Notes under the pieces: generated by a model
The model's input: only the letters and a program-made list of their open reading frames with translations
The model's database searches: none
What the model was told of the DNA's origin: nothing
Program-made: the position numbers and the translations under genes
NCBI GenBank assembly: GCA_018220985.1
Contig: JAAOXS010000005.1
Location: forward strand, 1-54,657
DNA length: 54,657 bases
Direction: 5' to 3'
From: Nanobdellota archaeon
GTDB lineage: Archaea; Nanobdellota; Nanobdellia; PEZQ01
Shown: one piece after another, positions 2,156-52,979 of the stretch
How the letters are laid out: each line of letters starts with the position of its first letter
Position numbering within the stretch: position 1 is the first letter of the stretch

Positions 2156-2194
2156 TAACATTTTTAAAACAATTATTAGTAATGTTTTCTTATT

Positions 2195-2310
2195 GGGCCC
2201 ATGGCGCAGTTTGGTAGCGCGCTGGTCTTATAAGACAACCTCTGAAACAGTCAAAAAAGAAAGTGTTCTAGGATAACCAGAGGTCATCGGTTCAAATCCG
2301 ATTGGGCCCA
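2195..2310 (+). tRNA. tRNA-Ile(UAU) with 42-nt intron at 37/38 (2233-2274)
   Basis: Acceptor GGGCCCA/TGGGCCC, anticodon stem CTGGT/ACCAG, anticodon TAT at 2229-2231, T-arm ATCGG-TTCAAAT-CCGAT; bulge-helix-bulge with CTTA pairing to TAGG. Confidence 0.9.
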
Positions 2311-2383
2311 TTTTATTATTTTTTTTGTTTAAAATTAGTAACCGTAAGCTTTTAAAAACAATAATTCCGTTTGAAATTGAATC

Positions 2384-12630: not shown

Positions 12631-14294
<1,664 letters not shown>

Positions 14295-16180: not shown

Positions 16181-16253
16181 GGGCTCGTAGCTCACTCGGT
16201 AGAGCGCCGCCCTTGCAAGGCGGAGGCAGTGGGTTCGATACCCACCGAGTCCA
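16181..16253 (+). tRNA. tRNA-Ala(UGC)
   Basis: G3:U70 in GGGCTCG/CGAGTCC, CCGCC-CTTGCAA-GGCGG anticodon arm. Confidence 0.95.
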
Positions 16254-16318
16254 CTTCCGTTAATTTTTCCAGATTAGTTCCGAAATACTTTTGATAATAG
16301 GATTGCGTGTAGTATAAT

Positions 16319-26438: not shown

Positions 26439-29400
26439 CGAGTCGTGCATACGAGTTGGATTTACCAGGTAGAATATAATATAATAAATATAACTTTGCT
26501 GTTAATTTTTAGTGGTAAAACGCCGTTTAGTGAATGGCTTGGCTTGAGAGCTGATGAAGGGCGTGGCAAGCTGCGATAAGCCCGGTGTAGCTGCATGCAA
26601 GCGTTGATACCGGGATTCCTTAATGCGACTTCGTGAACCTTAGGGTTCGCACCATTCAATTGGTGCAGGAACGCGGTGAATTGAAACATCTTAGTAACCG
26701 CAGGAAGAGAAAACAATTGTGATTCCGTAAATAAGGGTGACTGAAAGCGGACCAGGGCAAAATGAATCTGCAATAGTAATATTGTGGAAATGTGTGGTTT
26801 GGGCCGTGCTAAACATCCAAAAATCTAAGCTTAACTTCTCTGGAAAGAGAGACCTTAGAGGGTGATAGTCCCGTAAGCGCTCGATAATTGGTTGTGGCAT
26901 GGTTCCTGAGTAGCCAGGGTTGAAACTCCTTGGTGAACATGGGAGGCAACAACTCCCAACCCTAAACACTCCTCAAGACCGATAGCGTATTAGTACCGTG
27001 AGGGAAAGTTGAAAAGAACCCGTACAAGGGTGTGAAAAGAGCCTGAAACTAAGCGGCCACAGTAAGACGCGGCATTAAAGCGAAAATTTTACAGGATACT
27101 GTTTAGTTTTCTTGCGGTGTTGCGTCATCCGTTCCGGATAACGGAGCAGGGAGTTTGTGTAAGTGGCAAGACGAACCATCTTTACGTTGGTGTGTCGAAG
27201 CGAAAGCGAAATTGCCCGCAGCATGCGAGGGGCTGGGTGCGAATAGTGCCCGTAGTCACTTGTGCAAGACCCGAAGCGAGTTGATCTACGCCTGGCCAAG
27301 ATGAAGTCCCCTGTCAAGGGGGTGGAGGTCTGAAGAGGTACTGTGTACAAGCGTTCTTCTGAGCTGGGTGTAGGGGTGAAAAGCCAATCGTAACTCGCAA
27401 TAGCTGGTTCCTCGTGAAATAGGCCTTAGTCTAGTCTACGGTGAGATGGCTTGAGGGGTAGAGCGACTGATTTTATGCGACAGGGGTCATGAGACCTCGG
27501 TATGAAGTCAAACTCCGAATACTCAAGTATTTTAGACCCGTGGAAACGGTGCAGGGGGGTAAGCTCCTAGCACGAGAGGGGAACAACCCATACTATGGTT
27601 AAGGTCCCTAATTACTGGTCAAGTGTAAAAGGTAGAAGCGTATCCGACTCCTAAAACAGCCGGGAGGTAGGCTTAGAAGCAGCCATCCTCTAAGGAAAGC
27701 GTAATAGCTCACCGGTCTAGGGCTCGGGTCGTGAAAATGGACGGGACTAAGCCAGTAACCGATACCATAGAACACTCCGAAAGAGTGATTTAGTAACGAG
27801 GCGTCCCGCGCGAGCAGAAGCATGGTCGCAAGGTCATGTGGATCGCCCGGGAATGAGAATCCTGCTAACAGTAGCAGCAAAGCAAGGTGAGAATCCTTGT
27901 CGCCGAATGGGCCAGGGTTCCTCAGCACTGTTCGTCAGCTGAGGGTTAGTCGGTCCTAACGCCACCCTTAACTGGGCGTGGTGGAAGGGGAAACGCGTTG
28001 ATATTCGCGTACCACTATTGTACATGCGGTAACGCAAGCAGTACTGGGTGACACTTCCGGATAAGCCGAACACAGTCATCGCTGTGTCTAACAAGAATAA
28101 GCGTGTAGAGTCTCGTAATGAGGAGAAGCACGTTAAGCTTGGAATAGCCCGTGTATACGGGTTCGGTTGAGTCCTGGAGTCATTGAAAAACCCGTACTGA
28201 AGGATCAGTAGTGTCCGTACCCAGAACCGACACAGGTGCCCTAGCTGAGTAGGCTTAGGCGTGTAAGGGATAACTCGAGGTAAGGGAAATCGGCAAGTTA
28301 GCCCTGTATCTTTGGTATAAGGGGTCCCTGCGGTGGTGTTCGTATGAGCGCGATTGCAGGGGACACTAACAAGGCCGGCTGGACTGTTTAACAAAAACAT
28401 AACTGACTGCTAGCCATAAATGGTGTGTATAGTCAGCGAGTCGTGGCCACTGCCAGTATCTGAAAGCTTGTTTCAACGGGCCAAAGGACTGGTGTAGGCC
28501 GGAGGTATCCGTAACCTTCTTAAGGTAGCGTAATTCCTTGTCATTTAATTGGTGACGTGCATGATGGATTAACTAGGTCGGCGCTGTCCCTACCCGAGAC
28601 CTTGTGAATATTCTTTCCTGGTGTAGAGGCCAGGGACTTCCAGTGGGTTGCGAAGACCCCAGGAGCTTTACTGTAGTCTGTTGTTGCTGTACGCGTAGTG
28701 TTGTGTAGAGTAGGTGGGAGACGTCGATGGAGGGCAGAAATGTTTTCCGGAGTCATTGATGAAACACCACCCTTCACTGTTTGTACAGCTAACCTTTAGA
28801 GGGACAGCGATTGATGGGCAGTTTGGCTGGGGTGGTACGCCCGCGAAAAAATATCACGGGCGCCTAATGGTTACCTCATCCGGTTTAGAACTCCGGAGTT
28901 GAGTGCAATGGCAAAAGGTAGCCTTACCGGAAACCGAAAAATAAGGTTTGCGGTCTCGAAAGAGAGGCATAGCGATCCTCACTGCTCTTTTGTTGAGAGC
29001 GTGAGACGGCAGAAAAGTTACCCTGGGGATAACAGGCTTGTCGCGCTCGAGCGTTCATAGCGACGGCGCGGCTTGGTACCTCGATGTCGGCTCTTCCTAT
29101 CCTGGCGGTGCATAAGCTGCCAAGGGTGCAGGTGTCCACTGATTAAAAGGGATCGTGAGCTGGGTTCAGAACGTCGTGAGCCAGTTCTGTTGTTAACTAC
29201 TGGAAGCGTTTGGCGCTTGAGTGGAAGCAAGCATTAGTACGAGAGGAACATGCTTGCGTGGCCTCTGGTTTACCAGTCATCCGACAGGGTGCCGCTGGGC
29301 AGCTACGCCATAATTGGGATAAGAGCTGAAAGCATCTAAGCTCGAAGCCTTCCGCAAGACGAAGCGCCATTATTAGGTTCCCCGTAGAACACGGGTTTGA

Positions 29401-29530
29401 TAGAGTTGGGGTGTAAGCACCAAGGTAACGAGGTGTTCAGCCCGCGACCACTAAGAGACCGAACCGCTAAAATTTTATGGAAGCAAAGAATATCTCACTT
29501 GTAAATTTCCAACTCGTATTGCACGATTCG
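26439..29530 (+). repeat. 23S processing stem (flanking inverted repeats)
   Basis: CGAGTCGTGCATACGAGTTGGA (26439-26460) pairs with TCCAACTCGTATTGCACGATTCG (29508-29530). Confidence 0.85.
26508..29470 (+). rRNA. rrl: Archaeal 23S rRNA
   Basis: GAAACATCTTAGTA, GGGATAACAGGC, CTCGATGTCGGCTC and sarcin-ricin loop AGTACGAGAGGAAC; ends approximate. Confidence 0.97.
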
Positions 29531-33888: not shown

Positions 33889-34868
33889 AAAATCGTTATA
33901 GTTTTTACGAAAAGGTAGGTAGAACTTTTCCGAGGGGCGTTAAAAAAAGTATTTGTTCTATGATGGTTTATGCTGATATTAAAGTTGATGAAGAAGCGTG
34001 GCTTGGTTTCACAACCGTTTTTACGAGTTTGCTTTTTCTCGCTGTTTCATTGCTTTCTTTTGTAATAACTCGTGATTTTTTAGTTTCTTTTTTGTCAGGT
34101 GTTGTTTTAAGTGGTTTTTTTGTTTTAGTTCCTCATTTACTTATTAGTTTAAAAAGTGATAAGAGGGTTGATTTTGTGGAGAAAGTTTTGCCCGATGCTT
34201 TGTTATTAATCGTTTCTAACATTAGGTCGGGTATTACTCCTGAGAAAGCTTTGGTTCTTAGTGCGAGGGACGAGTTTGGTATTCTTTCTGTTGAGATTAG
34301 GAGTGCGATGAAGCGCACTCTTGCTGGTGAGAATTTTGTTGAAGCTTTAAAACTTATCAGTAAGAATGTTAATTCTAAGGTTTTAAGGCGTGTTGTTAGT
34401 TTGTTAGTGGAGGGTGTGCGTTCTGGTGGTGAGATTGCTAAGTTGTTAGAGGAGTCTGCGTACAATATTCGTTCTAATCAGTTGATGAAGCGTGAGATTC
34501 GTTCAAGTGTTTTGATGTACATTATTTTTTTGTTTGCGGCTATTGGTTTTGCAGCGCCTATTCTTTATGGGATTAGTTCTTATTTAACAACTATTATGAG
34601 TGATTTGTTAGCGGGGATTGATATTCCTGAGGAAGTTTTGCGAACGAGTTTTATTAAATTGTCAAGTTCTTCGATTAGCCCTGAGTTCGTGAATTTTTTC
34701 GCTATTTTCAATTTATCTGTTAGTTGTTTGTTTGGTAGTATGATTATTGGCATGATTGAATCTGGCAGTGCTAAGAAAGGTTTGAAATTCATACTGCCAT
34801 TGTTAGTGTGCAGTCTTGGTTTGTATTTCTTACTACGAAGCGTTTTAAGCACTGCAATAGTTATATAA
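33885..34868 (+). CDS. TadC/TadB-like (T2SSF domain) pilus platform protein
   Basis: LPDALLLIVSNIRSG.TPE.AL...EFG.LS, GVRSGGE. Confidence 0.88.
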   Translation: MKNRYSFYEKVGRTFPRGVKKSICSMMVYADIKVDEEAWLGFTTVFTSLLFLAVSLLSFVITRDFLVSFLSGVVLSGFFVLVPHLLISLKSDKRVDFVEKVLPDALLLIVSNIRSGITPEKALVLSARDEFGILSVEIRSAMKRTLAGENFVEALKLISKNVNSKVLRRVVSLLVEGVRSGGEIAKLLEESAYNIRSNQLMKREIRSSVLMYIIFLFAAIGFAAPILYGISSYLTTIMSDLLAGIDIPEEVLRTSFIKLSSSSISPEFVNFFAIFNLSVSCLFGSMIIGMIESGSAKKGLKFILPLLVCSLGLYFLLRSVLSTAIVI

Positions 34869-36440
34869 TCATTTAAAGAACCTACCACCAATTTCCACCA
34901 GTCTTGTATAATCTTCTAAAGTGAGTAATCTTTCCATTTTAGGTTGTCCAACAAGTGATCCGCTAGTGTTTTGTTTTTTTTCTTTTTGAAAGTTCCAAAA
35001 AGTATTTTCAGGAACAAAATTTATTTCAAGGTTTTCTAATCTAACATTATCCCTAAATCCACGAGATTTTTTGTACAATTCATTACCCTCACAAATATTT
35101 TTATCTAGTTTTTCAGATAATTCCTGAAGATTTCCCGGAATTTCACTTGCTTCAGCTATAACAAAATATTTTTTATTATTTTCATCAGGATAATAACCAA
35201 AATTGCTAATATTACTAATTTTTTCTGATTCTATTAATTGTTCAAGAGCTATTTTAACATGTGCAGGGTATAAACGCTCAATATCAATGTTTCCTATTTT
35301 ACCATCCCATCTTCCAATAATCTCAAAACGAATAGGGTCTTTTCCAACAATTTTAATGATGTCGCCATTCAAATAATTATACAAACCTGCAACAGTAGTG
35401 CAAGCGAGACCATAGTTATCACCAATTTTCGCTTCAGTAATATGTTTAAGGTTATCTTGAAGAACATTAACATGGCTACCTTCTTTATGAACTTTTAATA
35501 ACAAGTCTTCATCTATAATTCCATAAATCAAGTTTTTCAAAAAACCAACATGTCCTTTTTTCTCACCTTGTTCACAACCAGGCATACCATTTAATTCACT
35601 GCTACCATATGCATTAGTAACAGGATATTCTCCTCCAAGATATTCAAATATTGTTGAAGCAAGAGGTCCAAAATCTTCACCACTAGAAATTACAGCTTCT
35701 AAATTATCAGTTATCAAATTCATTTTTCCTTTTTCTTGTATGAAATCAAGTAAATCCGCCATGAAAATTGGCACTCCTGCAAGCCCTGTTATCTTCTTGC
35801 CTTCAATATCTTTTAACAAAGCAGTATACCTTTTCTCATCATTTGCAATTTTTAAAGTACTTTCAGATGGTAAAAGAAGGCTTCCAATTCCTGGTTTTTT
35901 AATTGTGTGAGAAAGAGCAATTGATGAAATATAATCAATAGGCAATCCTCCTTTAAGTTCTGTTTCATTAATGGTAACTACAGTAAGTAATTTTCCAGAT
36001 AATAATTTTGGTTTCTTCATTGATAATTGAAGTTGAGTAGTTGCTAGTGTTAAATTGTTCAAATACCAATTATTAATTGGAAACATTTTTGGAACGTTTG
36101 TTGTACCTGATGTTCTAACCCAGCCAATAGGTTGTTGTGAAGAAAGAACATTAGGTGGTTCGCTCCAATTAGAGTTATTCAATCTTTTTTCAATTTCTTC
36201 AAAAAAAGGTACGTAATCCTCATAAGTTGTTAATGGGACTTTTTTAAAAAATTTATCAATTGTTTTAATATTGAAAAAATCATATTTTTTACCATAATCT
36301 GTTGAAGCATTGGCTTTCATTAGTTTTTGCAAAAATTTTTCCTGCGTTTCAAGAGGTTTGTCCCACCCATCGTTACCATATTTAAAAAGTTTTAGACATT
36401 TTAATGCACCATAAAATAAATAACTCTTAACAAAACCCAT
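34869..36440 (-). CDS. GH3-family acyl-acid amido synthetase
   Basis: TQEKFL..L...NASTDYGKKY.F, VPLTTYEDY, TSGTT..PKMFP, YGSSE, GLYNY..GDII, GR. Confidence 0.85.
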   Translation of the reverse strand: MGFVKSYLFYGALKCLKLFKYGNDGWDKPLETQEKFLQKLMKANASTDYGKKYDFFNIKTIDKFFKKVPLTTYEDYVPFFEEIEKRLNNSNWSEPPNVLSSQQPIGWVRTSGTTNVPKMFPINNWYLNNLTLATTQLQLSMKKPKLLSGKLLTVVTINETELKGGLPIDYISSIALSHTIKKPGIGSLLLPSESTLKIANDEKRYTALLKDIEGKKITGLAGVPIFMADLLDFIQEKGKMNLITDNLEAVISSGEDFGPLASTIFEYLGGEYPVTNAYGSSELNGMPGCEQGEKKGHVGFLKNLIYGIIDEDLLLKVHKEGSHVNVLQDNLKHITEAKIGDNYGLACTTVAGLYNYLNGDIIKIVGKDPIRFEIIGRWDGKIGNIDIERLYPAHVKIALEQLIESEKISNISNFGYYPDENNKKYFVIAEASEIPGNLQELSEKLDKNICEGNELYKKSRGFRDNVRLENLEINFVPENTFWNFQKEKKQNTSGSLVGQPKMERLLTLEDYTRLVEIGGRFFK

Positions 36441-44573: not shown

Positions 44574-46208
44574 ATGGTGCGGGGGCAAGTATCTATTGAG
44601 TATTTTTTTCTTGTGAGCATTATCATGTTAGTCGGTATTGGCGTGGTTTTATCTTATATGAGAATAACTGAAAGCACTATTTCTTCATTTCAAAGTGAGG
44701 CTTCAGTGCAAAAATTGAATGAGGAGATTACACGAGTATTTTACATGAGATATCCTGCTACGCGAACTGTGCGTTTAGAAATTCCTAATAACGTGATTAG
44801 TAATAGAACTTTTATTGCTAATAATACTATTCAAATTAGTTATTATGATAATGGAATTGTTGACGTTTTTGAAAGTCTTGATTTTAATGTTTCAGGATAC
44901 ATCCCTAACAAACCTGGAGTTTATTGGCTTAAATTGTTCTCAGATATTAATAACACGCTTCAAGTTATGGTCATAGATTTTGATGTTTATCCTGATAATA
45001 TTGCGCTTTACTTACCTAAGTTCGGTGAAAAAGAGTATAATATTACTTTAACCAATACGGGTAATCAAACAATTAGTGTTAGTGCGTTAACTGAGAATCT
45101 TGATTACTTAGTTGATCTTGACGCGTCCACAAGGTATATTGATACTTCACTTAATTTAGGAAGCATTGTTAAAGGTGGTCATAAAACTTTTGAAATTCGT
45201 GTTAGTGCAAATAAAGGCGTTGGAAATTATTATGGAACTATTTTTCTCAAAAGCGATAATGTTGAAATCAATATTCCTATTGCAGTTGGTATTCGTAATC
45301 GAATTTTTCCAGTGAATACAACAATTATTCCTCTGGACAGTAATCAAGTTGATGTTTTGAAAGCTTATGGTTTTGCTTATGATTTATTAAGTCAAGAAAT
45401 TCCTGTTGGTTGGGTTATGAACAATATTACGATTAACACAACTGAGTTAGGAAGTTATGATTATGAGGGTAGTGTTTTCGTAATTGATAGTTTGGATGTT
45501 GATTGGATCATTTCAGAAGCTGCTTCTTGGGGTGTTACAATTCATCATTTAAACCAATCTCTTAATGGTGATTTCGTAACTTGGCTTGCTTTCGCTCCGA
45601 GAGTTGCTGTTCATTCAAGTGGGAAGTATTGGGTTGTCACTAGTACGCTTAACATGTCTGGAATACCCTATGATTGGGTTGATGGTAATACCATTCTAAA
45701 CAGTGGTTTAGCAGGTTATGATGTTTTACTAGTAGGGCATTATGATTTTGAGTTTAATTCTCCGAATCCTGAAGGTGAAACTAGTAAAATAGAAGAGTTC
45801 GTTGTTAATGGAGGTTATTTGCATGCGGAGTGCGTTTCAATAACGAGCTATGAGAAATATCAGAATTCTACTGGTGTTACTTCTTCAAGAAGCATTTTTG
45901 GAGGGGATTATTTGGAAATGTTCGAGTCTGAGAATCCTTTAACTCAAACATGGGGTGTACCTAAGGATATTGGCGGTACTGTTTCTGGTTTGAACGTGTC
46001 TAATGCTAATGTTACTGTGTTAAGTGATGATAATTATGGTTTCCATAAGTTCGTGTATTCCTCACATGGTGAGGGCTATATTTCTTATTTTGCAGGTCAC
46101 TTAGGTGATAGTGTTGACATAAATGTTTCACGTATGCGATTGCTTAATAACGTGGTTTTGTTCACTTCCGCTGAAAAAGGTAAAACCGGCCCGTTACCAC
46201 AAATTTAA
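44574..46208 (+). CDS. Class III signal peptide (pilin-like) adhesin/minor pilin
   Basis: MVRG/QVSIEY followed by a hydrophobic helix and a large beta-rich extracellular part. Confidence 0.8.
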   Translation: MVRGQVSIEYFFLVSIIMLVGIGVVLSYMRITESTISSFQSEASVQKLNEEITRVFYMRYPATRTVRLEIPNNVISNRTFIANNTIQISYYDNGIVDVFESLDFNVSGYIPNKPGVYWLKLFSDINNTLQVMVIDFDVYPDNIALYLPKFGEKEYNITLTNTGNQTISVSALTENLDYLVDLDASTRYIDTSLNLGSIVKGGHKTFEIRVSANKGVGNYYGTIFLKSDNVEINIPIAVGIRNRIFPVNTTIIPLDSNQVDVLKAYGFAYDLLSQEIPVGWVMNNITINTTELGSYDYEGSVFVIDSLDVDWIISEAASWGVTIHHLNQSLNGDFVTWLAFAPRVAVHSSGKYWVVTSTLNMSGIPYDWVDGNTILNSGLAGYDVLLVGHYDFEFNSPNPEGETSKIEEFVVNGGYLHAECVSITSYEKYQNSTGVTSSRSIFGGDYLEMFESENPLTQTWGVPKDIGGTVSGLNVSNANVTVLSDDNYGFHKFVYSSHGEGYISYFAGHLGDSVDINVSRMRLLNNVVLFTSAEKGKTGPLPQI

Positions 46209-46235
46209 AATTGTTCAATAACCTTTTTTGTAGTT

Positions 46236-46370
46236 ATGAGTTATTCACGTGAAGATTTTGATGATGTTCTTAATCTTGTAAGGCCTATTCCTCTTACTGA
46301 TGAGGAGTTAATTTTAAGGGAGTTTTCTGATATTAAGGAAGTGCTTATTTCTTTGAAAGATGAGGTTTAG
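46236..46370 (+). CDS. Putative 44-aa acidic protein
   Basis: MSYSREDFDDVLNLVRPIPLTDEELILREFSDIKEVLISLKDEV; TTTAAAA about 32 nt upstream. Confidence 0.4.
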   Translation: MSYSREDFDDVLNLVRPIPLTDEELILREFSDIKEVLISLKDEV

Positions 46371-46406
46371 TAAGGTTTAAATAGGGTTTTTTTGTTATTT
46401 TTTATT

Positions 46407-46747
46407 GGTTGTGGGTGGGAGCGCAGTTATCGCTTCTTTTAATTTGAAGTGAGGAAGGTCCACACTCCAGTTCGTGACAACCTAAGTGATTAGGAACTTT
46501 GAGAAAGGTTGGTTTAACAGAGCAGAAACGATTAACCATTTGAACCTGATATTGATGATGGTTTGTTATTGTGGGTGAAACGGCTGTTACCTTGTTTGGT
46601 GCAAGTCCGCTCAAGAATTCAGTTTATGATTAGTGAATTCGGAGAGCTTTAATGAGACGCTTAGACGAATACTGCGAACACTGTCGAAGACCCCGTTTTC
46701 GCGGGTGAGGGTGGTAACAAAAAGTGGACTACTCCCCAACCACAACT
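46407..46747 (+). ncRNA. rnpB: RNase P RNA
   Basis: P1 GGTTGTGG/CCACAACT; CR-I GAGGAAGGTCCAC pairs with CR-V AACAAAAAGTGGACTA (P4); GCAGAAAC and GTGAAACG CR-II/III motifs. Confidence 0.88.
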
Positions 46748-52838: not shown

Positions 52839-52979
52839 GGGCGTGTAGCATAGTCCGGATAATGCGACTGCCTCCTAAGCAGTGAAGATAGATGGGCAAA
52901 CCGAATCATAATATGTGGTTACTGACCTATGCTGAGCTGAGAAAGCAGTAGACCGGGGGTTCAAATCCTCCCACGCCCG
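52839..52979 (+). tRNA. tRNA-Arg(CCU) with 66-nt intron (52878-52943)
   Basis: GGGCGTG/CACGCCC acceptor, D-loop AGTCCGGATA shared with the other tRNA-Arg, ACTGC-CTCCTA|A-GCAGT anticodon arm, relaxed BHB. Confidence 0.9.
52878..52943 (+). ncRNA. Intron-encoded box C/D guide RNA predicted to target 16S rRNA
   Basis: C box GTGAAGA 52882-88, 12-nt guide, D' CCGA 52901-04, degenerate C', 12-nt guide, D CTGA 52932-35; guides complementary to 14100-14107 and 13894-13904. Confidence 0.75.

Follow-up and report, generated by a model that had tools for sequence, protein, structure and literature searches.

We propose that the intron of the transfer RNA (tRNA) gene for arginine with anticodon CCU, located on a 54,657-nucleotide contig of a Nanobdellota archaeon, is a working archaeal box C/D guide RNA, which would act in trans on the 16S ribosomal RNA (rRNA) at one site in helix 34 (h34) and at a second site, equivalent to Escherichia coli C1402, at the base of helix 44 (h44). 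Judged from sequence comparison, this reading is likely as a whole, and its parts were graded separately: that the guide is aimed at 16S rRNA and not at its host tRNA is supported, the assignment of the D guide to h34 is strongly supported, and the assignment of the D' guide to C14102 is moderately supported and plausible. The whole contig is referred to below as the window. The source genome, designated G000, is archaeal, with 661,534 bp in 24 contigs, 33% GC and 83.6% completeness, and the window is its contig C15. Relatives are designated G001 and so on, families f1 and so on, and loci and contigs by the letters L and C, respectively. The elements on which the analysis was based are given below; L127 is the closest intron relative found.

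12737-14228, plus strand: 16S rRNA gene holding both targets (Rfam SSU_rRNA_archaea, 1451.7 bits)
13894-13904, plus strand: 16S h34 target ATAGGTCAGTA; predicted 2'-O-methylation site G13897
14100-14107, plus strand: 16S h44-base target TGCCCGTC; predicted site C14102, equivalent to E. coli C1402; T14100 replaces the usual C1400
52805-52812, plus strand: candidate archaeal TATA-like box TTTAAAAA, as read, about 27-34 nucleotides (nt) upstream of the tRNA 5' end
52839-52979, plus strand: tRNA-Arg(CCU) gene with intron (Rfam tRNA, 51.8 bits; aragorn -i, tRNA-Arg(cct) i(40,66))
52878-52943, plus strand: intron, putative box C/D small RNA (sRNA) of 66 nt at the canonical position 37/38; boundary ambiguous by one A
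52878-52880, plus strand: 5' half of the terminal stem, AGC; 3 bp with GCU at 52936-38, with A81, G82 and U83 as the bulge of a kink-turn (K-turn) layout, as read
52882-52888, plus strand: box C GTGAAGA; 6/7 to RUGAUGA; four of its letters (T, G, A and G) unchanged across the nine aligned sequences; identical in L127
52889-52900, plus strand: D' guide spacer TAGATGGGCAAA, 12 nt; N3-N10 pair with 16S 14100-14107; GATGGGC guide family
52901-52904, plus strand: box D' CCGA, a variant of CUGA with GA kept; also D' in L127
52905-52912, plus strand: D'-C' linker ATCATAAT, 8 nt, variable; different sequence in L127
52913-52919, plus strand: box C' ATGTGGT, degenerate (4/7), lacking both GA steps; identical heptamer in L127
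52920-52931, plus strand: D guide spacer TACTGACCTATG, 12 nt; N2-N12 pair with 16S 13894-13904; ACTGACCT invariant in 9/9 aligned homologues
52932-52935, plus strand: box D CTGA, exact; C, G and A invariant in the 9-sequence alignment
52936-52943, plus strand: 3' tail of the intron, GCTGAGAA; GCU completes the terminal stem on the 3' side, from reading and fold

The Rfam tRNA match contains a 67-nt insertion after position 37, and aragorn, run with introns allowed, places a 66-nt intron in a tRNA-Arg(cct). The tRNA is otherwise intact, the position 37/38 fits an archaeal bulge-helix-bulge tRNA intron, and among the 29 tRNA calls of the G000 assembly this gene is the sole tRNA-Arg(CCU) detected. 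Read from its 5' end, the intron runs through AGCA, box C, the D' spacer, box D', the linker, box C', the D spacer, box D and the tail, and both spacers (C to D' and C' to D) are exactly 12 nt long, as for an archaeal box C/D sRNA. The archaeal box C consensus is RUGAUGA. A further CTGA is present at 52937-40, and the minimum free energy fold pairs the terminal-stem region in a shifted register, as a 4-bp stem.

In the tail, GAG (52939-41) could pair with the anticodon-loop positions C32, U33 and C34 (C32:G41, U33:A40 and C34:G39, plus a C-U mismatch). As read, the resulting bulge-helix-bulge at 37/38 is of the relaxed type, its central helix comprising 3 bp and its 3' bulge AA and A38; the ViennaRNA fold also has a 3-nt 3' bulge, AAA, with an inner register other than the one read. 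A full 4-bp central helix is formed in homologues with GGAG in place of GAG, and in L127, which has GGGG where G000 has UGAG. Upstream of the gene, TTTAAAAA resembles the box A of Nanoarchaeum equitans and may be a tRNA promoter element; passages of the N. equitans study describe TTTAAA, 26 nt upstream of tRNA transcription starts (PMC3491384).

Pairing of the D guide with helix 34

The segment 52920-30 is fully complementary to 16S 13894-13904, over 11 Watson-Crick base pairs, and N5 of this guide (C52927, the fifth base upstream of box D) stands opposite G13897, the first G of AGGUC. A MAFFT alignment with E. coli 16S (L080), ungapped at both targets, equates G13897 with 1197, C14102 with C1402 and T14100 with C1400. 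All the strings and coordinates that the original prediction had given for boxes, guides and targets were found in place; its 11/11 complementarity with N+5 on G13897 is exact, the second pairing that it had described, an 8-bp D' duplex with one G-U pair and N+5 on C14102, is also in place, and the alignment agrees with its numbering of C14102 as C1402.

The probability of such matches was evaluated by comparing shuffled guides with 7035 nt of own-genome targets (16S, 23S and 28 pre-tRNAs), the Watson-Crick run being required to include N5. The 11-bp run of the D guide was equalled by 10/3000 shuffles, and a score in which G-U pairs counted half was equalled by 4/300 shuffles for the D guide and 240/300 for the D' guide. 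By itself, the D guide's match to h34 probably did not arise by chance. The same target scan, which covered the rRNAs and tRNAs as had been suggested originally, found no better target for the guides in tRNAs and none in the host tRNA.

The pairing was then compared among the 12 genomes in which both the guide and the 16S were available. In 10 of these, the D guide makes 10-11 contiguous Watson-Crick pairs with h34 in a common register. The guides match three h34 haplotypes (GGUAGG/CCUAC, GAUAGG/CCUAU and GACAGG/CCUGU), and N5 always falls on the same G:

16S target GGUAGGUCAGU, guide ACUGACCUAC: G021, G002, G048, G083, G036, G035
16S target GAUAGGUCAGU, guide ACUGACCUAU: G000, G001, G012
16S target GACAGGUCAGU, guide ACUGACCUGU: G015

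N2 and N3 both show compensatory double changes, of which there are two at the least, the number of independent events depending on the tree. The covariation that the original prediction had called for is thus present in 10/12 genomes and imperfect in two (G006 and G023, considered below). Conservation across families, described in the next section, and guide-target covariation together strongly support the assignment of the D guide to h34.

G13897 is presumably the site of yeast Gm1428 and human Gm1490, an assignment that could be off by one, so that the eukaryotic position may also be that of the neighbouring G. Yeast Gm1428, guided by snR56 (U25 for human Gm1490), lies in helix 34 according to passages of three papers (PMC2794176, PMC8817022, PMC2656528), in which passages the sequence context of Gm1428 was not found.

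The 16S of one relative that carries the guide has an unusual structure. In G058 (L046, C15, ~34617-35442) long insertions divide the gene into five or more pieces, and one insertion of ~826 nt separates the two Gs of AGGUC exactly, so that it directly follows the nucleotide targeted by the genome's own tRNA-Arg intron guide. Since this insertion splits the target, the G058 guide could pair only with the spliced 16S.

Intronic and free-standing relatives of the sRNA

A BLAST search with the tRNA gene against 60 relatives gave matches spanning the intron in six genomes, all from other families. When 11 loci were analyzed with aragorn, tRNA-Arg(cct) genes with introns of 60-74 nt were called in seven, the gene of G001 was intronless, and three loci were mis-called; inspected by eye, two of the latter (L008 and L013) have the same arrangement and the third (L028) is tRNA-Arg(TCT)-like. 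Across the nine sequences then aligned, there is no variation in the anticodon loop, the box C core, the TG of box C', the D guide ACTGACCT and the C.GA of box D, and the linkers and D' spacers vary. A sequence-only covariance model (R1) built from this alignment was used to search 151 genomes sampled from the class; 23 genomes matched at 24 places, all of which were read. The h34 guide ACTGACCT was found in the tRNA-Arg(CCU) introns of f1, f2, f6, f12, f15 and f20, that is, in at least five families other than that of G000, so that a lack of guide conservation, one of the results by which the original prediction might have failed, was not what we observed. In f4 the guide is a variant, ACAGACCTAC, and the boxes are weakened, and among the genomes searched the large families f16, f18 and f22 gave no example of the intron sRNA. 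A phylum-level search with the model added one weak match (G410), and all the genomes listed belong to the same class.

Additionally, a pattern consisting of the h34 guide and box D (ACTGACCTRYNCNGA) was searched in 401 genomes; 22 matched, of which 16 represent this sRNA. The other six, which were new places lacking both boxes and a tRNA, were judged to be chance matches. The reversed control of the pattern gave ~18 matches, which indicates that the pattern alone is not specific. A scan of contigs with the G000-type pattern gave 34 matches; 33 are in records that are bacterial by title and were taken as chance unread, and the remaining match marks an sRNA-like locus, outside any tRNA gene, of an Iainarchaeum metagenome-assembled genome.

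G001 is the only other member of the G000 family among the genomes searched. Its tRNA-Arg(CCU) is intronless and the sRNA is a separate gene, with the D' spacer GCGATGGGCGGA (the 1402 guide), the D spacer AACTGACCTATT (the h34 guide) and a 5-bp terminal stem, CGTGT/ACACG. A second free-standing sRNA, in G038 (f4), carries the guides in swapped order, with TACTGACCTATA before D' and TAGATGGGCGGC before D. The h34 and C1402 guides therefore occur together in three box contexts (G000, G001 and G038). The existence of free-standing two-guide RNAs in relatives implies that the host tRNA is not required for guide function. The original prediction had the intron acting in trans as an rRNA guide and coupling tRNA splicing to small-subunit maturation; the first part is supported in that the guide is directed at 16S, conserved and covarying, with its D' half backed by homology, and the coupling is not obligatory, as the G001 arrangement indicates.

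These data also bear on the possibility that the guide acts on a tRNA, in cis or in trans, and that its match to 16S is incidental. Such a role has a precedent, since the guide in pre-tRNA-Trp, the only experimentally studied intron-borne archaeal guide according to passages of PMC7994747, targets its own tRNA. In G000, however, the best tRNA match is poor (7 Watson-Crick and 4 G-U pairs, to pre-tRNA-Leu(UAA)) and none lies in tRNA-Arg; moreover, the guide co-varies with 16S, and free-standing orthologues exist where the tRNA has no intron. We therefore consider a tRNA target, already disfavoured, to be highly improbable.

Many relatives retain just one of the two guides. The D' half is replaced or lost in several of them: G035 and G058 have a TCTCCAT/ATGGAG hairpin instead of D'/C', and in G015 and G012 this half is eroded. 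Most f2 introns (L049-L054 and L062) have a D' spacer, AAGAAGGTCAA, that holds AGGUCA, a copy of the 16S target, by which it can base-pair intramolecularly with UGACCU of the D guide; shifted variants are found in G002 and G083. The sole rRNA candidate for AAGAAGGTCAA is an 8-bp match near 2010 of the 23S of G000, the 23S used for this comparison.

A metagenome scan anchored on the exon edges only recovered 10 intron-bearing tRNA-Arg(CCU) loci, L127 included. In five others (L124, L126, L130, L132 and L128) the introns are 70-80 nt long and have other C/D-like contents, e.g. CGATGATTA ... GGCTGAGA, and those of L129 and L131 have no C/D-like boxes. From these sequences, position 37/38 of tRNA-Arg(CCU) seems to be a site of turnover of intron content.

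The D' half and position C1402

The D' guide (52891-98) pairs with 16S 14100-07 over 8 positions, one of them G-U, and its N5 (G52896) stands opposite C14102. In order to place this guide, we searched the 401 genomes for GATRGGC located two bases downstream of a C or C' box; 52 places in 50 genomes were found, compared with ~5 for a reversed-pattern control, and 20 of the 52 were fetched and read. Seven of these 20 are complete C/D sRNAs (G032, G024, G134, G026, G092, G146 and G010, the last with a 13-nt spacer); the other 13 have no D box at the right distance, two of them (G056 and G007) being ambiguous. In f22, 17/19 genomes match the pattern, and in 11 the 15-mers, part of which were fetched, are identical to that of G026. 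In all seven genomes with a guide of this family and a 16S, N5 lies opposite C1402 with 8-9 contiguous pairs, for which the 8 of G000 are typical. Passages of three papers equate E. coli Cm1402 with Cm1639 of yeast (snR70; human Cm1703/U43) (PMC2794176, PMC8817022, PMC2656528). The assignment of the D' guide to C14102 is considered plausible, and moderately supported, because a class-wide guide family has the same register and because this guide travels with the h34 guide in free-standing sRNAs. Perfect GCCCAUC targets of GAUGGGC occur at 22 sites in G000, none of them in sense rRNA or mature tRNA.

It could be argued that only the D half works, as a one-sided h34 guide, and that the D'/C' half is a relic in decay, its match to C1402 having lost any function. 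The form of the boxes (C' ATGTGGT is degenerate and D' is CCGA), a D' match at chance level in its own genome, and the replacement or loss of the D' half in G035, G058, f2 (AAGAAGGTCAA), G015 and G012 speak for this view. Against it, the 12-nt D' spacer is retained, with the GATGGGC core in the register of the guide family, and no second guide of the C1402 type was found in G000, where the GATRGGC pattern has one match; both guides are moreover retained in G001 and G038. L127 provides a further point against decay: it shares with G000 box C GTGAAGA, D' CCGA, C' ATGTGGT and the h34 guide, its linker differs, and its D' spacer GTGATGGGCGAA has G at N3 and U at N11. Since the degenerate D' and C' boxes are unchanged beside a changed linker, we argue from these sequences that the weak internal boxes are kept by selection. 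CCGA is also the box D of G012, G017 and G056, and it is found in L156, the sRNA-like locus of the Iainarchaeum genome; in a contig of sequencing run X2 that is 90-95% similar, two of the differences (52907 and 52909) fall inside the D'-C' linker. On balance we regard a one-sided guide as rather unlikely, although it is an alternative of real substance, and favour an RNA in which both halves function.

Several results weigh against a working two-sided guide and have to be set beside the evidence above. The best run of the D' guide was equalled by 1780/3000 shuffles and is at chance level alone, which together with the 4/7 match of box C' bears out the remark, made originally, that the D' duplex is short and C' weak. 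A kink-loop (K-loop) is expected to need the GA steps of C', and ATGTGGT lacks both. The pairing of the D' guide with U1400 had been described as including this organism's own C1400U change; the guide does place an A opposite T14100, but the same guide, GATGGGCAAA, occurs in G026 with a normal C1400, so that the A:U1400 pair of G000 cannot be called compensatory and may be luck. Furthermore, nearly all guides of the C1402 family have a U opposite G1405, a conserved wobble. In the h34 duplex, G006 and G023 have one mismatch each at N9 (target C; guide U or A); the G006 assembly is 6% contaminated, and its 16S may thus come from another organism. In G000 the helix between the two bulges is only 3 pairs long, and a search of the 84%-complete assembly for PF01974, the domain of the splicing endonuclease, gave no match. 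This domain is present in 11/12 relatives, including G001 of the same family, and the endonuclease is to be expected in G000 because five further tRNAs of this genome bear introns. In the sequencing runs, the three sets of contigs at the locus resemble DNA and contain neither a joint that crosses the intron nor a circular junction, and no listed run is on record as RNA, so that they have no bearing on expression.

Two further observations on the same side are the lack of a thermodynamic signal (the ViennaRNA folds are no more stable than those of shuffles, z = -0.77 and -0.95) and the lack of a family-level Rfam match. Among the Rfam C/D families searched with E up to 10, none exceeded its threshold, the only matches being sR2 (13.9 bits, gathering 42) and sR23 (11.3 bits, gathering 45), which are mis-registered (E = 1 and 2.3). 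Both would fit an ordinary intron that is spliced and degraded, in which the boxes and the 16S complementarity are chance features. The absence of fold stability is nevertheless expected for guide RNAs, and archaeal sRNA families are lineage-specific, so that the missing Rfam match weighs little. The comparative data contradict the view that these features arose by chance: the boxes and the guide are invariant across families in which the rest of the intron varies, compensatory changes follow the target, the run of the D guide is equalled by just 10/3000 shuffles, and elsewhere this RNA is found as a separate gene that has a terminal stem of its own. Chance is consequently hard to credit, and the intron remains best described as a probable guide RNA.

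Two features of the 16S sequences themselves should be mentioned here. The T at 14100 of G000 (ACACACTGCCCGTC) corresponds to a C in the 16S of 12/12 relatives read at this position, and is either real or an assembly error. In G134 (L109) the 16S reads GCCCATCAT, with A at E. coli 1405, by which the wobble becomes a Watson-Crick pair.

Maturation, other introns and known guide RNAs

The proteins that a box C/D guide would use are encoded in G000. The genes of fibrillarin (270 bits) and Nop5 (156 bits) lie side by side on C7 (1580-2874), whereas L7Ae (98.7 bits) is encoded on C21 (17977-18258) and RtcB (524 bits) on C22, all over the Pfam cut-offs; the absence of fibrillarin and Nop5, which had been considered as grounds for rejecting the guide, was thus not observed. 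In the maturation pathway that we propose, the pre-tRNA would be transcribed from the tRNA promoter, and L7Ae would bind the predicted K-turn, to which boxes C and D and the AGC/GCU stem would contribute, with Nop5 and fibrillarin joining it. The splicing endonuclease would cut the relaxed bulge-helix-bulge at 37/38, and RtcB would join the exons and probably circularise the intron, as may be expected from archaeal introns. The D guide would pair with h34, a step indicated by covariation, and fibrillarin would be placed on G13897 for methylation; the D' guide would most likely pair with 14100-14107 and lead to methylation of C14102, as the homology within the guide family suggests. The host tRNA would provide transcription and processing, and the small ribonucleoprotein may act before or after splicing.

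The RNA could instead serve mainly as a chaperone of rRNA folding that pairs with h34 and the base of h44 together, methylation being secondary or absent. Its two targets are 205 nt apart in one rRNA, and a chaperone role of double guides with distant targets is discussed in passages of PMC7994747. Pairing alone, however, would not demand the strict N5 register seen in all homologues, fibrillarin has been retained in a much reduced genome, and many relatives retain just one guide. We judge a chaperone to be improbable as the main role and retain guided methylation as the probable one.

Among tRNA introns that carry box C/D guides, those known from passages of the literature are in pre-tRNA-Trp and act on that tRNA (PMC7994747, PMC3218864). 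The G000 intron resembles the euryarchaeal pre-tRNA-Trp guide (Haloferax volcanii; Pyrococcus sR50) in being a C/D RNA within a 37/38 tRNA intron that would depend on the endonuclease, L7Ae, Nop5 and fibrillarin (PMC7994747, in part). It differs in its target: whereas the pre-tRNA-Trp intron guides Cm34 and Um39 of its own tRNA according to passages of the same paper (PMC7994747), the tRNA-Arg(CCU) intron would guide modification of 16S, and complementarity to the host tRNA around 34 and 39 was not found among the best targets of its guides. The intron RNA of the N. equitans elongator tRNA-Met is similar in having C and D boxes and a length of 66 nt, and in coming from an archaeon with a small genome; it is described as stable and abundant (PMC3491384, in part). 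Unlike the G000 intron, that RNA has tRNA-Met as its host and a G+C-rich hairpin, and no target is named for it in main-text passages of PMC3491384.

There is also a likeness to free-standing archaeal C/D sRNAs, which have the same compact layout with 12-nt spacers and to which the G001 and G038 orthologues, with 5-bp terminal stems, belong, and to dicistronic tRNA-sRNA units, in which release of the sRNA through tRNA processing is known in N. equitans (PMC3491384, in part). In contrast to both, release in G000 would be by splicing and not by RNase Z or an own promoter. Passages on the eukaryotic guides snR56/U25 and snR70/U43 describe RNAs that are released from introns and direct modification of helix 34 and of the C1402-equivalent site (PMC2794176, PMC8817022, PMC2656528). 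For helix 34 the likeness is subject to the uncertainty of one position noted above, G13897 being either the Gm1428 position or the neighbouring G. The eukaryotic pair consists of two separate small nucleolar RNAs (snoRNAs), from spliceosomal introns or independent genes, unlike the single RNA in a tRNA intron in G000. In the full-text literature covered, which leaves most subscription journals outside, no tRNA-Arg intron sRNA and no rRNA-aimed tRNA-intron guide were found.

C/D-like RNAs were also observed in other tRNA introns of the relatives. The tRNA-Arg(UCU) introns of f17 (L066 in G017 and L067 in G056) contain a different C/D sRNA, with boxes ATGAGGA, TCGA, GATGAGA and CCGA, whose D' guide makes 10 Watson-Crick base pairs with 16S UUAGAUACCC in the 790-loop region, the 16S of G000 and G032 being used for this comparison. 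In G039 (L065), the intron of tRNA-Thr(CGT) is 59 nt long and holds C/D boxes together with a guide that contains CTGACC and has another 3' part, CTGACCAGCA; 16S was not found in the G039 assembly. Taken with the distribution described above, it may tentatively be suggested, though we find it slightly easier to doubt than to accept, that tRNA introns are across the class a regular and exchangeable home of rRNA-modification guides, and that an ancestral two-guide sRNA moved between intron and free-standing gene at least twice (G001 and G038).

The only other candidate C/D sRNA of strict layout found in G000 is on C13, minus strand, starting at 64224. Its guides match 23S over 10 bp (two G-U) near 2325 and over 11 bp near 2514 of the gene, and its internal boxes are also degenerate (D' ATGA, C' ATGATTT), in agreement with the view that the weak boxes of the intron are real. 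G000 seems to hold very few C/D sRNAs. The five further intron-bearing tRNAs of G000, and the 23S gene, are as follows:

Window 2194-2311: tRNA-Ile-UAU
C5:19779-19907: tRNA-Tyr
C5:23288-23429: tRNA-Leu-UAA
C8:9804-9998: tRNA-Trp
C20:22206-22385: tRNA-Leu-CAA
Window 26506-29473: 23S rRNA gene (Rfam)

The five introns start with a shared (G)ACAAC followed by CT and, in four of them, by a T run, and none has a C/D layout; they look like a second, related intron family. The tRNA-Trp intron, of 121 nt, contains GTGATGA. The 16S (12737-14228) and 23S genes are ~12 kb apart, with a tRNA-Ala (16181-16254) 2 kb after 16S, so that the rRNA operon is not compact, and no 5S rRNA was found in the G000 assembly. 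An aragorn call of a tRNA-Lys with a 1133-nt intron (45399-46620) overlaps the RNase P RNA (46411-46743; Rfam, 119 bits) and is most likely false.

Earlier archaeal tRNA-intron guides comprise those that act on their own tRNA (tRNA-Trp) and one uncharacterised case, the N. equitans tRNA-Met. An intron guide that is aimed at rRNA, conserved among families and covarying with its target would be a closer prokaryotic counterpart of the eukaryotic intronic snoRNAs than both of these. Its two predicted targets lie in the decoding region and bear on the modifications that a minimal ribosome keeps; both bacteria and eukaryotes modify C1402, and eukaryotes modify h34 at or beside the equivalent of G13897. 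The occurrence of the same sRNA in an intron and as a free-standing gene within one family offers a natural experiment on the mobility of guide genes and on the gain and loss of tRNA introns. If tRNA introns are indeed an exchangeable home of such guides, the tRNA gene would lend its promoter and splicing machinery to the guide, as eukaryotic snoRNA host genes do, and the production of a decoding tRNA and the modification of the decoding centre would be transcriptionally linked.

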